Positions 14,410-17,488 of a stretch of DNA of 64,000 nt are shown piece by piece. The position numbers and the translations under genes are program-made. The stretch is taken from NCBI RefSeq assembly GCF_046105845.1, contig NZ_CP151004.1; one strand, 5' to 3'. The notes beneath the pieces are model-generated. The model did not search any database. It was not told where the DNA came from and saw nothing but the letters and a program-made list of their open reading frames with translations. The stretch is from Escherichia coli (GTDB taxonomy: Bacteria; Pseudomonadota; Gammaproteobacteria; Enterobacterales; Enterobacteriaceae). Position 1 is the first letter of the stretch; every line of letters begins with the position of its first letter.

Positions 14410-15141
14410 ATGAAAAAAGTTCTGATTGCCGCGTTAATTGCAGGTTTTAGTCTTTCCGCCACAGCTGCCGAAACCATTCGTTTTGCTACCGAAGCCTCCT
14501 ATCCTCCGTTTGAATCGATTGATGCAAACAACCAGATCGTTGGTTTTGACGTCGACCTGGCACAGGCGCTGTGTAAAGAGATTGATGCAACCTGTACTTT
14601 CTCTAACCAGGCGTTTGACAGCCTGATCCCAAGCCTGAAATTCCGTCGCGTGGAAGCGGTGATGGCCGGGATGGATATCACCCCAGAACGTGAAAAGCAG
14701 GTGCTGTTTACCACGCCGTACTATGACAACTCTGCCCTGTTTGTGGGGCAGCAAGGCAAATACACCAGTGTTGATCAGCTGAAAGGCAAAAAAGTCGGCG
14801 TTCAGAACGGGACGACACACCAGAAGTTCATTATGGATAAGCACCCGGAAATCACCACCGTGCCGTATGACAGCTACCAGAACGCAAAACTGGATCTGCA
14901 AAACGGTCGTATCGACAGCGTATTTGGTGACACCGCAGTGGTAACCGAATGGCTGAAAGATAACCCGAAACTGGCGGCAGTGGGCGATAAAGTGACCGAT
15001 AAAGATTACTTCGGTACTGGCCTCGGCATCGCAGTACGCCAGGGCAACACTGAACTGCAGCAGAAACTCAACACTGCGCTGGAAAAAGTGAAGAAAGATG
15101 GCACTTACGAAACCATCTACAACAAATGGTTCCAGAAGTAA
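14410..15141 (+). CDS. artI: Arginine ABC transporter periplasmic binding protein
   Basis: 243 aa with signal peptide; paralog of artJ in the same window. Confidence 0.92.
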   Translation: MKKVLIAALIAGFSLSATAAETIRFATEASYPPFESIDANNQIVGFDVDLAQALCKEIDATCTFSNQAFDSLIPSLKFRRVEAVMAGMDITPEREKQVLFTTPYYDNSALFVGQQGKYTSVDQLKGKKVGVQNGTTHQKFIMDKHPEITTVPYDSYQNAKLDLQNGRIDSVFGDTAVVTEWLKDNPKLAAVGDKVTDKDYFGTGLGIAVRQGNTELQQKLNTALEKVKKDGTYETIYNKWFQK

Positions 15142-15147
15142 TTCCTG

Positions 15148-15864
15148 ATGAATGAATTTTTTCCTTTAGCAAGCGCCGCCGGGATGACCGTCGGCCTTGC
15201 CGTTTGTGCATTGATTGTCGGGCTGGCGCTGGCGATGTTCTTTGCGGTATGGGAGTCGGCAAAATGGCGTCCTGTCGCGTGGGCAGGTTCAGCGCTGGTA
15301 ACCATTCTGCGTGGCCTGCCAGAAATTCTGGTGGTGCTGTTTATCTATTTTGGCTCCTCGCAGCTGCTGCTGACGCTTTCGGATGGCTTCACTATCAATC
15401 TTGGGTTCGTGCAGATCCCGGTGCAGATGGACATTGAGAACTTCGACGTTAGCCCGTTCCTTTGTGGTGTCATCGCTCTGTCGCTGCTGTATGCCGCCTA
15501 TGCCTCGCAAACGCTGCGCGGCGCGTTGAAAGCGGTGCCGGTGGGCCAGTGGGAATCTGGTCAGGCGCTGGGGCTGTCGAAATCGGCTATCTTTTTCCGT
15601 CTGGTGATGCCGCAGATGTGGCGTCATGCGCTGCCTGGTCTCGGTAACCAGTGGCTGGTGCTGCTGAAAGATACCGCGCTGGTCAGTTTGATTAGTGTGA
15701 ATGATTTAATGCTGCAAACCAAAAGCATCGCTACCCGTACCCAGGAACCGTTTACCTGGTACATTGTGGCGGCGGCGATTTACCTGGTGATCACCCTGCT
15801 CAGTCAGTACATTCTCAAACGCATTGACCTGCGCGCGACACGTTTTGAGCGGAGGCCCAGCTAA
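15148..15864 (+). CDS. artQ: Arginine ABC transporter permease
   Basis: 238-aa polar amino-acid permease family ORF. Confidence 0.92.
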
Positions 15865-16532
15865 TGTTTGAGTATTTACCCGAACTGATGAAAGGGCTGC
15901 ACACCAGCCTGACGCTAACCGTTGCCTCGCTGATTGTGGCACTGATTCTGGCATTGATTTTTACCATCATCCTGACACTGAAAACGCCGGTACTGGTGTG
16001 GCTGGTGCGGGGTTATATCACGCTGTTTACCGGTACGCCGCTGCTGGTGCAGATCTTCCTGATTTATTACGGGCCGGGCCAGTTCCCGACGTTGCAGGAG
16101 TATCCGGCACTGTGGCATTTGTTGTCAGAACCGTGGTTATGTGCGCTGATTGCGTTATCGCTGAACAGTGCGGCGTATACCACGCAGCTGTTTTACGGTG
16201 CAATTCGTGCGATCCCGGAAGGTCAGTGGCAGTCCTGTAGCGCCCTGGGAATGAGCAAAAAAGATACGCTAGCGATCCTGCTGCCGTATGCCTTTAAACG
16301 CTCGCTCTCTTCTTATTCCAACGAAGTGGTGCTGGTGTTCAAAAGTACCTCTCTGGCTTACACCATTACGCTGATGGAAGTGATGGGATACAGCCAGTTG
16401 TTGTACGGACGCACCTACGATGTCATGGTGTTCGGTGCGGCAGGGATTATTTACCTGATTGTTAACGGTCTGTTGACGCTGATGATGCGTCTGATCGAGC
16501 GCAAAGCACTGGCATTCGAACGGCGGAATTAA
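15864..16532 (+). CDS. artM: Arginine ABC transporter permease
   Basis: 222-aa permease; start overlaps artQ stop. Confidence 0.92.
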   Translation: MFEYLPELMKGLHTSLTLTVASLIVALILALIFTIILTLKTPVLVWLVRGYITLFTGTPLLVQIFLIYYGPGQFPTLQEYPALWHLLSEPWLCALIALSLNSAAYTTQLFYGAIRAIPEGQWQSCSALGMSKKDTLAILLPYAFKRSLSSYSNEVVLVFKSTSLAYTITLMEVMGYSQLLYGRTYDVMVFGAAGIIYLIVNGLLTLMMRLIERKALAFERRN

Positions 16533-16607
16533 TGTAGCTGCGTGCTGATGCCGGATGCGTCGTGGACGTCTTACCCGACCTGCATAGTGCATAAATTCTT
16601 ATAATGA

Positions 16608-16642
16608 AGACGGACAACTCACTAAGTTGTCCGTCTTTTTTA
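16608..16642 (+). terminator. Rho-independent terminator of artPIQM
   Basis: gacggacaact / agttgtccgtc stem followed by tttttt. Confidence 0.8.
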
Positions 16643-16756
16643 TTTCATTTAAATTATTTAATCATATTTATTGCATATAAATTCACTTGATGGCATTGTT
16701 ATCCCATGCCGCAGACACGGCCAAAAATCATAAGATTGACAGACGGGAGTTCCATC

Positions 16757-17488
16757 ATGAAAAAGTTAGTTCTTGCCGCTTTACTTGCTTCCTTTACTTT
16801 CGGTGCTTCTGCCGCAGAGAAAATCAATTTTGGCGTTTCAGCCACCTATCCACCCTTTGAATCTATAGGTGCTAATAATGAGATTGTCGGCTTTGATATC
16901 GATCTGGCAAAAGCCTTGTGCAAACAAATGCAGGCAGAATGTACTTTTACTAATCACGCGTTCGACAGCCTGATCCCGTCACTGAAATTCAGAAAATATG
17001 ACGCCGTAATCTCCGGTATGGATATCACCCCGGAGCGTAGCAAACAGGTATCGTTTACCACGCCCTACTATGAAAACTCAGCCGTCGTGATTGCCAAAAA
17101 AGATACCTACAAAACGTTTGCCGATCTGAAAGGCAAACGTATTGGGATGGAAAACGGTACTACGCACCAGAAATATATTCAGGATCAGCACCCGGAAGTG
17201 AAAACTATCTCCTATGACAGTTATCAGAATGCCTTTATCGATCTGAAAAATGGTCGTATTGATGGGGTATTTGGTGACACAGCGGTGGTTAATGAATGGC
17301 TGAAAACCAACCCGCAACTGGGCGTTGCGACTGAAAAAGTGACCGATCCGCAATACTTCGGCACCGGCCTGGGTATCGCTGTACGTCCGGATAACAAAGC
17401 TCTGCTGGAAAAACTGAATAACGCGCTGGCAGCAATTAAAGCTGACGGTACATATCAGAAAATCAATGACCAGTGGTTCCCACAGTAA
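16757..17488 (+). CDS. artJ: Arginine-binding periplasmic protein ArtJ
   Basis: Start trimmed to MKKLVLAALL signal peptide; high identity to artI. Confidence 0.92.
   Translation: MKKLVLAALLASFTFGASAAEKINFGVSATYPPFESIGANNEIVGFDIDLAKALCKQMQAECTFTNHAFDSLIPSLKFRKYDAVISGMDITPERSKQVSFTTPYYENSAVVIAKKDTYKTFADLKGKRIGMENGTTHQKYIQDQHPEVKTISYDSYQNAFIDLKNGRIDGVFGDTAVVNEWLKTNPQLGVATEKVTDPQYFGTGLGIAVRPDNKALLEKLNNALAAIKADGTYQKINDQWFPQ

Follow-up and report, generated by a model that had tools for sequence, protein, structure and literature searches.

The artPIQM–artJ genes of Escherichia coli K-12 reportedly constitute the 'third periplasmic arginine transport system' of Wissenbach et al. 1995 and Caldara et al. 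2007. Since the 1990s, the locus has been known to comprise two transcription units under ArgR control, with ArtI and ArtJ as paralogues. In published descriptions, artPIQM and artJ are separate units and ArtJ binds arginine selectively (PMC2228313, PMC6640053). The K-12 system was treated by Torres Montaguth et al. 2019 (PMC6640053). According to that paper, ArgR binds and represses at artJ, the overlap between ARG boxes and −35 element is equally extensive at artJ and artP, and single-copy PartJ-lacZ fusions are active and repressed by ArgR.

We analysed a 64-kb stretch of E. coli DNA, hereafter the window, that carries the five art genes (Table 1). The region matches K-12 artPIQM–artJ (b0864–b0860) in the order and lengths of its genes, in its terminator and ArgR operator and in the flanking ybjP and rlmC. 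An artP-artI-artQ-artM-artJ region, annotated by those names, was found in 5420 of 5426 complete E. coli genomes, presence being scored as coverage of at least 80% of positions 13300–17900. PCN033 and K-12 are annotated with the same identities for the art genes, and all five Art proteins scored above the NCBIfam equivalog cutoffs. A sequence-only reading of this DNA had placed artI and artJ at the positions listed in Table 1, on either side of the permease genes, and had called this the known arrangement. The ORFs lie exactly there, artQ and artM stand between the two paralogues, and the genome count and published descriptions concur.

Table 1. Features of the artPIQM–artJ locus, in window coordinates.
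Feature	Position	Strand	Basis and details
Predicted ArgR operator of artP	13570–13608	+	two 18-bp ARG boxes, 13570–13587 and 13591–13608, 3-bp gap
artP, ATP-binding subunit	13664–14392	+	NCBIfam equivalog NF008338, 502.7 bits (cutoff 369); artP in PCN033 and K-12
artI, periplasmic binding protein, 243 aa, SBP_bac_3	14410–15141	+	NCBIfam equivalog NF041764 (ArtI_Ecoli)
artQ, permease	15148–15864	+	NF008337, 468 bits (cutoff 277)
artM, permease	15864–16532	+	NF008336, 423.4 bits (cutoff 248)
Decayed Y-type REP	16550–16583	+	28/34 match to canonical REP
artPIQM intrinsic terminator	16606–16643	+	terminator scan and folding; 14-bp stem, 5-nt loop, T-run
Predicted ArgR operator of artJ	16649–16687	+	ARG boxes 16649–16666 and 16670–16687, 3-bp spacer
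Candidate artJ promoter	16671–16699	+	TTGCAT, 17-nt spacer, CATTGT; placed by eye, 6/12 consensus
artJ, arginine-specific periplasmic binding protein, 243 aa	16757–17488	+	NCBIfam equivalog NF041765 (ArtJ_Ecoli)
artJ terminator	17494–17523	+	terminator scan; −14.3 kcal/mol, z = −4.0

ArtI matched the ArtI model over its full length with 536.7 bits (cutoff 522), and the ArtJ model gave it just 395.1 bits. Reciprocally, ArtJ scored 533.3 bits against its own model (cutoff 510; residues 1–243 of 243) and just 384.5 bits against that of ArtI. PF00497 was detected in both proteins (E = 6e-41 for ArtI). Compared with its K-12 orthologue, ArtI carries a single substitution (S170 in the window, G in K-12) and ArtJ carries two. 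Both N-termini have the form of a signal sequence: MKK, then a hydrophobic stretch, then an A-x-A motif ahead of AE. The components of a PAAT-family ABC importer are encoded together here: one ATPase, a pair of permeases and a family-3 solute-binding protein that bears an N-terminal signal sequence. The region as a whole is almost certainly best explained as the canonical E. coli artPIQM–artJ locus, which encodes an ABC importer dependent on periplasmic binding proteins. Little space separates artP (ATPase), artI (binding protein) and the permease genes artQ and artM, the intergenic gaps being 17 nt and 6 nt and the artQ stop and artM start overlapping by 1 nt (TAATG). These four genes would form a single transcription unit that ends at a strong intrinsic terminator, and artJ, following the layout in the literature, would be a separate monocistronic unit. 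This two-unit layout had also been proposed in the sequence-only reading. It is supported here by a terminator after artM and an ArgR-type control region at artJ, and it matches PMC2228313 and PMC6640053.

The terminator between artM and artJ had been placed at 16608–16642, which was essentially right. Its hairpin (16606–16638, with 6 G-C pairs in the stem) is followed by TTTTTTATTT. Folded alone, the hairpin had a free energy of −21.0 kcal/mol (z = −7.6), and the element has the features of an intrinsic terminator as predicted from sequence. It is conserved across nine aligned Escherichia sequences; in Buttiauxella, its place is taken by another GC-rich stretch that also precedes a T-run. The artJ terminator lies between the convergent genes artJ and rlmC and overlaps the rlmC stop codon. 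In the artJ–rlmC interval of K-12, this second hairpin occurs twice, on either side of a 170-bp insert that contains REP sequence and is absent from the window.

We scanned both strands of the 64 kb for ARG boxes. The two best paired sites were those upstream of artJ (4 + 1 mismatches, 5 in total) and artP (4 + 2 mismatches, 6 in total), in that order, where the sequence-only reading had suggested looking. None of 30 shuffled sequences contained a site with ≤6 mismatches. The second ARG box of artJ was also the best single ARG box in the 64 kb. Both predicted sites show the features of E. coli ArgR operators, namely two 18-bp ARG boxes, a 3-bp gap and promoter overlap, and their layout matches the description in PMC6640053. 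The artJ operator differs from that of K-12 at one base (16666). Its core, TTTATTGCATATAAATTCACTTGATGGCAT, is identical in Buttiauxella, the operator/promoter core being 100% conserved.

The promoter of artJ was less readily placed. The promoter scan yielded no sigma-70 consensus site with at least 9/12 matches on the + strand upstream of artJ, and our own hexamer enumeration gave no convincing sigma-70 match there. Because of this, the inferred placement of the artJ hexamers, whose consensus score is under the listing threshold of the enumeration, is based on published work and on the parallel with artP, where the counterpart geometry is TTGCAT-17-TACTAT at 13592–13620. The placement agrees with the published overlap of ARG boxes and −35 element (PMC6640053). 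In the proposed mechanism, the artJ control region would start a few bases past the T-run of the terminator, with its two ARG boxes over the −35 region, so that arginine-bound ArgR could exclude RNA polymerase, as published for K-12.

The mechanically called artJ ORF extends upstream to an in-frame ATG at 16706. The start at 16757 is the one annotated in PCN033, with an equivalent start in K-12, and a Shine-Dalgarno sequence, GGGAG, lies at 16745–16749. In Buttiauxella, a 1-nt indel just upstream of the artJ ATG breaks the upstream extension, which supports 16757 as the artJ start.

The artM–artJ spacer is 224 bp in the window as compared with 290 bp in K-12. The additional 66-bp segment of K-12 holds an inverted REP that makes up a two-REP BIME, and the remaining K-12 REP is intact. 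This second REP is present in K-12 and in about 63% of genomes. The shorter spacer may have arisen by loss of the segment between ATGCCrGATG direct repeats, which are found in strain AST85. With the 170-bp insert at the other end of the gene, both ends of artJ are REP/BIME insertion/deletion hot spots in E. coli.

In the window, the REP-like element of this spacer reads GCCGGATGCGTCGTGGACGTCTTACCCGACCTGC, as compared with the canonical Y-type REP GCCGGATGCGGCGTGAACGCCTTATCCGGCCTAC. A degenerate REP-like sequence had been noted at about 16540–16600; the element is real and narrower, comprising 34 nt rather than about 60. It resembles E. coli Y-type REP/BIME elements in sequence, in its extragenic 3′ position and in having an intact orthologue elsewhere, and differs from them in lacking the hairpin and in its mutated terminal CTAC. 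Intact REPs occupy the same site in strains Nord58, Rb-50, P4 and Ec-U9-1 and in K-12. A chance REP-like match was ruled out by these perfect REPs at the same position. No other Y-type REP with ≤3 mismatches was found in the 64-kb window. The decayed variant occurred in 294 of the 5426 genomes, once per genome, and 152 of these 294 carry an intermediate allele that lacks the change at 16574. This intermediate favours stepwise mutation as the route of decay. No gene-conversion donor for the five clustered substitutions was found among identical words of at least 28 nt, the variant being single-copy in 294/294 genomes. By this account, the REP lost its hairpin through five lineage-specific substitutions, and the lineage is a small natural example of REP turnover by stepwise decay.

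The sequence-only reading had described ArtI and ArtJ as paralogous arginine-binding proteins. For ArtJ this agrees with published work; for ArtI it is not secure, as the literature conflicts. One account (PMC2228313, summarising Wissenbach et al.) gives ArtI an affinity for arginine ten-fold below that of ArtJ and no higher than its affinity for other amino acids. Two others list arginine and ornithine among its ligands (PMC6640053, PMC8050422). We found no newer direct measurements of ArtI ligands in the open-access literature, and a PDB search found no solved structure for either E. coli protein. We compared predicted ligand-contact positions. ArtI has E28, A86 and Q132 where ArtJ has S28, S86 and E132, at positions that align with D11, S69 and L117 of LAO. 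The arginine-specific protein STM4351 of Salmonella enterica has the ArtJ state at positions 28 (Ser) and 132 (Glu). In Tv2483, the Glu that binds the guanidinium group aligns with position 132, and the E128A substitution increases the Kd by a factor of about 5000. The corresponding position (Tv2483 E128, LAO L117) is acidic in ArtJ and STM4351 and Gln in ArtI; conversely, E28 of ArtI aligns with the acidic D11 of LAO, where ArtJ and STM4351 have Ser. Because its predicted side-chain contacts form a different set, the specificity of ArtI probably differs from that of ArtJ. ArtJ would be the high-affinity, arginine-specific protein of the pair, and ArtI would keep the general amino-acid-binding scaffold with altered side-chain contacts, both presumably docking on the same ArtQMP2 complex.

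Several alternative explanations bear on the artJ unit and its origin. The claim that artJ has a promoter region of its own is supported indirectly, by the paired operator, and not by a promoter match at the 9/12 level. This shortfall is the one observation in favour of artJ having no promoter and being expressed by read-through from artPIQM. We consider read-through very improbable: artJ lies behind a very stable terminator, directly after which comes a paired ARG-box operator of exceptional statistical standing, and 30 contiguous nt of the control region are unchanged in Buttiauxella, another genus, between diverged flanks. Moreover, single-copy PartJ-lacZ fusions were active and repressed by ArgR (PMC6640053). 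The reading with a separate, ArgR-controlled artJ unit is accordingly the one we retain. The homology of artI and artJ along their whole length, another earlier claim, was upheld by pairwise alignment: the proteins are identical at 154 of 241 positions (64%) and 80% similar, without gaps (E = 3e-124). The two genes are in direct orientation, 1.6 kb apart, equal in length and free of indels relative to each other, as could be the case if the duplication were recent or the copies still underwent gene conversion with each other. Their DNA identity is nevertheless 67.9%, falling to 46.7% at third codon positions. They share no run longer than 14 nt, sliding-window identity ranges from 0.52 to 0.78 with no segment standing out, and GC3 is 57.8% in artI and 47.1% in artJ. 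Buttiauxella gaviniae retains the order artI-artQ-artM-artJ-rlmC; its ArtI and ArtJ are 87% and 85% identical to the orthologues in the window, and its paralogues are equally diverged (∼62%). The third-position divergence and the Buttiauxella comparison effectively refute a recent origin or conversion, which we regard as extremely improbable. The low third-position identity, the absence of longer shared runs and the common gene order indicate that the duplication is ancient.

The decayed REP might still function, stabilizing the 3′ end of the artPIQM mRNA or serving as a RAYT, gyrase or IHF site. It occupies the usual extragenic position, 17 nt past the artM stop codon, and keeps most consensus positions. 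It also has a weak Rfam match to the REP-derived naRNA4 (23.9 bits; gathering score 59.5; E = 0.53), which reflects just its REP-likeness. The Rfam scan of 12500–19000 at E ≤ 1 returned sub-threshold matches only and no known RNA family; those to AbsR25, MIR821 and a CRISPR repeat family were chance matches on AT-rich or terminator sequence. The substitutions lie at 16560, 16565, 16569, 16574, 16578 and 16582. Four of them break stem pairs (G11-C20 to T/T, A6-T25 to A/C and C2-G29 to C/A), and the A-to-G change at 16582 turns the terminal CTAC into CTGC. The terminal GTAG/CTAC tetranucleotide is conserved in REPs and belongs to RAYT–REP recognition. The element folds with −9.1 kcal/mol (z = −0.25), 73 of 200 shuffles folding as well, as compared with −21.3 kcal/mol (z = −5.2) for the intact orthologue of Nord58. 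The terminator, 22 nt downstream, is a much more stable hairpin that would shield the 3′ end in any case, and Buttiauxella has no REP in this spacer. A working REP is therefore improbable, and the element is most likely a non-functional relic, its loss of function being suggested by sequence and folding, in a spacer prone to REP/BIME gain and loss. As for ArtI, a tentative possibility is that it does not bind arginine physiologically and is an anciently diverged paralogue for another cationic ligand, the acidic contact having moved from position 132 to 28. If true, ArtQMP2 would serve for the uptake of two different substrates, with regulation by ArgR plus Lrp for artI and by ArgR alone for artJ. 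It is doubtful that ArtI and ArtJ are instead redundant arginine binders, the duplicate adding merely dosage or differential regulation. PGAP names both 'arginine ABC transporter substrate-binding protein', the ligand lists cited above include arginine, and the backbone-contact residues R94, D174, Y31, F69 and T134-T135 are common to both. Against redundancy, the three predicted side-chain contacts differ, with the states at 86 and 132 fixed in the Buttiauxella proteins as well; the K-12 RefSeq record still names ArtI a 'putative ABC transporter periplasmic binding protein'; the reported affinity is lower and non-selective (PMC2228313); and both copies have been retained since before the Escherichia/Buttiauxella split. 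To call ArtI 'arginine-binding' overstates the evidence.

The locus itself offers little novelty. Three points may be modestly useful: the annotation label of ArtI, which rests on conflicting evidence, with ArtI departing from ArtJ at conserved predicted contacts; the REP/BIME hot spots; and the REP decay.

Among other known systems, the argT-hisJQMP cluster is comparable. There, two paralogous PF00497 binding proteins, LAO and HisJ, share HisQMP2, and the art cluster likewise has one membrane complex. In each, one of the two binding-protein genes is transcribed separately, and part of the system is under ArgR control (PMC6640053). ArtI and ArtJ align over their full length with ArgT and HisJ, and the 64% identity of the art pair compares with 70% reported for HisJ and ArgT (PMC6640053). 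By contrast, both binding-protein genes of the his cluster lie upstream of the permeases, whereas those of the art cluster flank them. The closest solved structure is that of STM4351 (PDB 2y7i; E = 1.4e-93 to ArtJ and 1.6e-81 to ArtI), a third paralogue that lies outside the art locus and shares the S28/E132 combination with ArtJ.

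The five art genes lie in the same direction on the + strand, according to both the ORF list and the raw sequence, with ybjP as the upstream neighbour. The sequence-only reading had placed artI and artJ on either side of the permease genes, an arrangement on which the ORF list and annotation tables agree. By megablast, 5424 of 5426 complete E. coli genomes matched the region 13300-17900, 5420 of them over at least 80% of its length, and it was annotated artP, artI, artQ, artM and artJ everywhere. The top match was strain PCN033 (99.4%); gene order and lengths are identical in the annotation tables of PCN033 and K-12 MG1655. 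Matches of at least 99% occurred in only five of the 5426 genomes, 5402 being at 95-99%, so the window belongs to an E. coli lineage that is sparsely sampled and close to PCN033. All five art proteins scored above their curated NCBIfam equivalog cutoffs; the models for ArtI and ArtJ both selected the correct paralogue, and the two binding proteins contain Pfam SBP_bac_3. The mechanical artJ ORF reaches further upstream, to an ATG at 16706; GGGAG precedes the annotated start (16757) and, in Buttiauxella, the frame of the extension is broken by a 1-nt indel just before the ATG.

Genes and REP-like element of the art region, in window coordinates
Feature	Position	Strand	Description
artP	13664-14392	+	ATP-binding subunit
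artI	14410-15141	+	periplasmic binding protein
artQ	15148-15864	+	permease
artM	15864-16532	+	permease
REP-like element	16550-16583		34 nt, GCCGGATGCGTCGTGGACGTCTTACCCGACCTGC; 28/34 match to canonical Y-type REP
artJ	16757-17488	+	periplasmic binding protein
rlmC	17517-18644	-	downstream neighbour, convergent

ArtI and ArtJ, each of 243 aa, are homologous over their whole length, as had been claimed: their pairwise alignment is gap-free, with 64% identity, 80% similarity and E=3e-124. Across the DNA of the two genes, identity is 67.9%, with 75%, 82% and 46.7% at codon positions 1, 2 and 3, respectively. Identical runs reach at most 14 nt, and identity in 60-nt windows ranges from 0.52 to 0.78 with no outlier. 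The low third-position identity, short runs and even windows thus give no sign of recent duplication or gene conversion. When species-representative genomes were scanned for plain-pattern matches to 22 nt of the artJ operator, three loci emerged. One, from Buttiauxella gaviniae, has artI (partial, cut off by the edge of the contig locus), artQ, artM, artJ and rlmC in the same order. The window and Buttiauxella orthologues are 87% (ArtI) and 85% (ArtJ) identical, and Buttiauxella ArtI and ArtJ are 62% identical to each other. Because the orthologues are more alike than the paralogues and gene order is shared, the comparison indicates that the duplication is older than the Escherichia/Buttiauxella split. 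In Pasteurellaceae, artPIQM occurs with artI alone, artJ being attached in enteric genomes only (PMC2228313). The G+C content of artJ is clearly below that of its operon neighbours (45.1% overall; GC3 of 47.1%, versus 57.8% in artI and 66% in artQ and artM), which may stem from selection on codon usage for high expression or from a different history.

The terminator reported between artM and artJ at 16608-16642 is essentially the feature found by the terminator scan, a 14-bp stem (16606-16638) closing a 5-nt loop, after which comes TTTTTTATTT; folded by itself, the hairpin reaches -21.0 kcal/mol (z=-7.6). Published work describes artJ and artPIQM as separate sigma-70 transcription units (PMC6640053, PMC2228313), both promoters having two ARG boxes that are bound by ArgR and overlap the -35 element (PMC6640053). 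Searching the whole 64-kb window with the pattern WNTGAATWWWWATTCANW, we found the best single ARG box at 16670-16687 (one mismatch); a box upstream of artP, at 13591-13608, has two mismatches. Box pairs were scored at 21 bp apart on both strands, the geometry of the canonical, paired-box ArgR operator (PMC6640053). The two best pairs in the 64 kb lie upstream of artJ (16649-16687; 4+1 mismatches) and artP (13570-13608; 4+2 mismatches), and a pair with ≤6 mismatches occurred in 0 of 30 locally shuffled windows. Only one base, 16666, separates the artJ control region from that of K-12, and the block TTTATTGCATATAAATTCACTTGATGGCAT within it is identical in Buttiauxella, the spacer around it having diverged.

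This operator and conserved block lend indirect support to the earlier claim that artJ has its own promoter region, although a consensus scan of the + strand upstream of artJ detected no site of at least 9/12 and the promoter hexamers are therefore not fixable from sequence. A candidate promoter that would fit the published geometry consists of TTGCAT (16671), a 17-nt spacer and CATTGT (16694); its artP counterpart is TTGCAT-17-TACTAT (13592-13620). At artP (13447-13663), the consensus scan yielded a 9/12 promoter-like site, TTAACT-18-CATAAT (13571-13600), atop both ARG boxes, giving two candidates for this promoter: that of the scan and that implied by the literature geometry.

The degenerate REP-like sequence reported at about 16540-16600 is real but shorter than proposed (table; Y-type reference, GCCGGATGCGGCGTGAACGCCTTATCCGGCCTAC). 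In a spacer alignment of nine Escherichia sequences, Nord58 and Rb-50 have an intact REP, identical to the consensus, at the exact same site, and Ec-U9-1, P4 and K-12 have one with one or two loop changes. Five extra substitutions are common to the window, PCN033 and MINF_7C. Four disrupt base pairs of the stem: G11-C20 became T on both sides, leaving a T/T mismatch, A6-T25 became A/C and C2-G29 became C/A. The fifth turns the terminal CTAC into CTGC. The window REP folds at -9.1 kcal/mol (z=-0.25; 73 of 200 shuffles equally good) and the intact orthologous REP at -21.3 kcal/mol (z=-5.2). A weak, sub-threshold match to Rfam naRNA4, a REP-derived family, reflects REP ancestry only. The decayed allele occurs in 294 of 5426 genomes, always as one copy, and is identical to that of the window in 142. 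The one-mismatch allele in the other 152 points to stepwise decay rather than a single conversion event; the two such sequences that were read retain T at the site equivalent to 16574, and no donor copy for the substitutions was found in the 294 genomes.

The artM-artJ spacer is 224 bp in the window versus 290 bp in K-12, where an inverted REP within the extra 66 bp yields a two-REP BIME. The K-12 form was covered to at least 80% in 3426 of 5426 genomes. A probe of 54 nt spanning the short-form junction of the window matched 340, and in further short-form genomes the sequence near the junction varies. Escherichia sp. E1V33 also has the long form, as do two divergent E. coli sequences, AST85 and SCPM-O-B-8794. 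The Buttiauxella spacer has no REP; its GC-rich stretch and ensuing T-run are read as a putative terminator. In AST85, the long form has a left flank, GCATGCTGATGCCAGATGA, that agrees with GC(A/G)TGCTGATGCCGGATGCGG at the junction of the short form, which could therefore have arisen from the long form by deletion between ATGCCrGATG direct repeats, a polarity that we infer.

The artJ-rlmC spacer is 28 bp with a single terminator hairpin in the window (17489-17516) and PCN033, whereas in K-12 (locus L002, 1649-1818) the artJ terminator hairpin (GAAAGCCGCA..GCGGCTT) stands on both sides of a 170-bp REP-containing insert. Having the hairpin twice suggests that BIME insertion left either a target duplication or a recombination scar. 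The K-12 form was covered to at least 80% in ~3175 of 5426 genomes. At the same junction, E1V33 (locus L015, 2061-5577) has a 3.5-kb insertion that, from translations read by eye, apparently encodes a 493-aa sulfatase-like, a 106-aa PTS IIB-like and a 447-aa PTS IIC-like membrane protein. Together, the two insertions mark the junction as a recurrent insertion site.

Upstream, ybjQ and ybjP are separated by a ~2.6-kb low-GC island (10300-12900; 29-38% GC versus ~53% on either side), in place of which K-12 has a 125-bp spacer only. Its 600-aa ORF (10506-12308, - strand) has weak, sub-threshold pentapeptide-repeat Pfam matches, and PCN033 has a truncated pseudogene annotated 'pentapeptide repeat-containing protein' at this site. 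The ORF is probably a horizontally acquired gene, intact in the window.

The earlier description of both proteins as arginine-binding holds for ArtJ, published as ArgBP-I with a Kd of 0.4 μM (PMC6640053). For ArtI the sources disagree: its ligands are given as arginine and ornithine (PMC6640053, PMC8050422), and a passage of PMC2228313 summarising Wissenbach et al. puts its arginine affinity an order of magnitude below that of ArtJ and no higher than its affinity for other amino acids. In the K-12 RefSeq record, ArtI is a putative binding protein. A search of the PDB copy gave no structure of E. coli ArtI or ArtJ; the closest solved one is that of the arginine-specific STM4351 of Salmonella. 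ArtI and ArtJ were aligned with STM4351, HisJ and the E. coli LAO protein, ArgT. The pocket was mapped from the contact positions in LAO structures, of which Y14, F52 and L117 were confirmed in the literature. Both Art proteins retain the main-chain and alpha-group contacts Y31, F69, R94, T134, T135 and D174. Three predicted side-chain-contact positions differ between ArtI, ArtJ and STM4351, respectively: precursor positions 28 (LAO D11; E, S, S), 86 (LAO S69; A, S, A) and 132 (LAO L117; Q, E, E), STM4351 having the ArtJ state at 28 and 132. In Tv2483, the Glu aligned with position 132 makes a bidentate guanidinium contact, and E128A raises the Kd ~5000-fold. Buttiauxella ArtI and ArtJ have the same states at 86 and 132 as their window orthologues. 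We infer that ArtI would differ from ArtJ in specificity or affinity.

Overall, this is the textbook art locus, already known; the original observation is confirmed and its interpretation supported. The refinements, all inside known categories, are the REP decay, the polymorphic BIME and the disputed ligand of ArtI.
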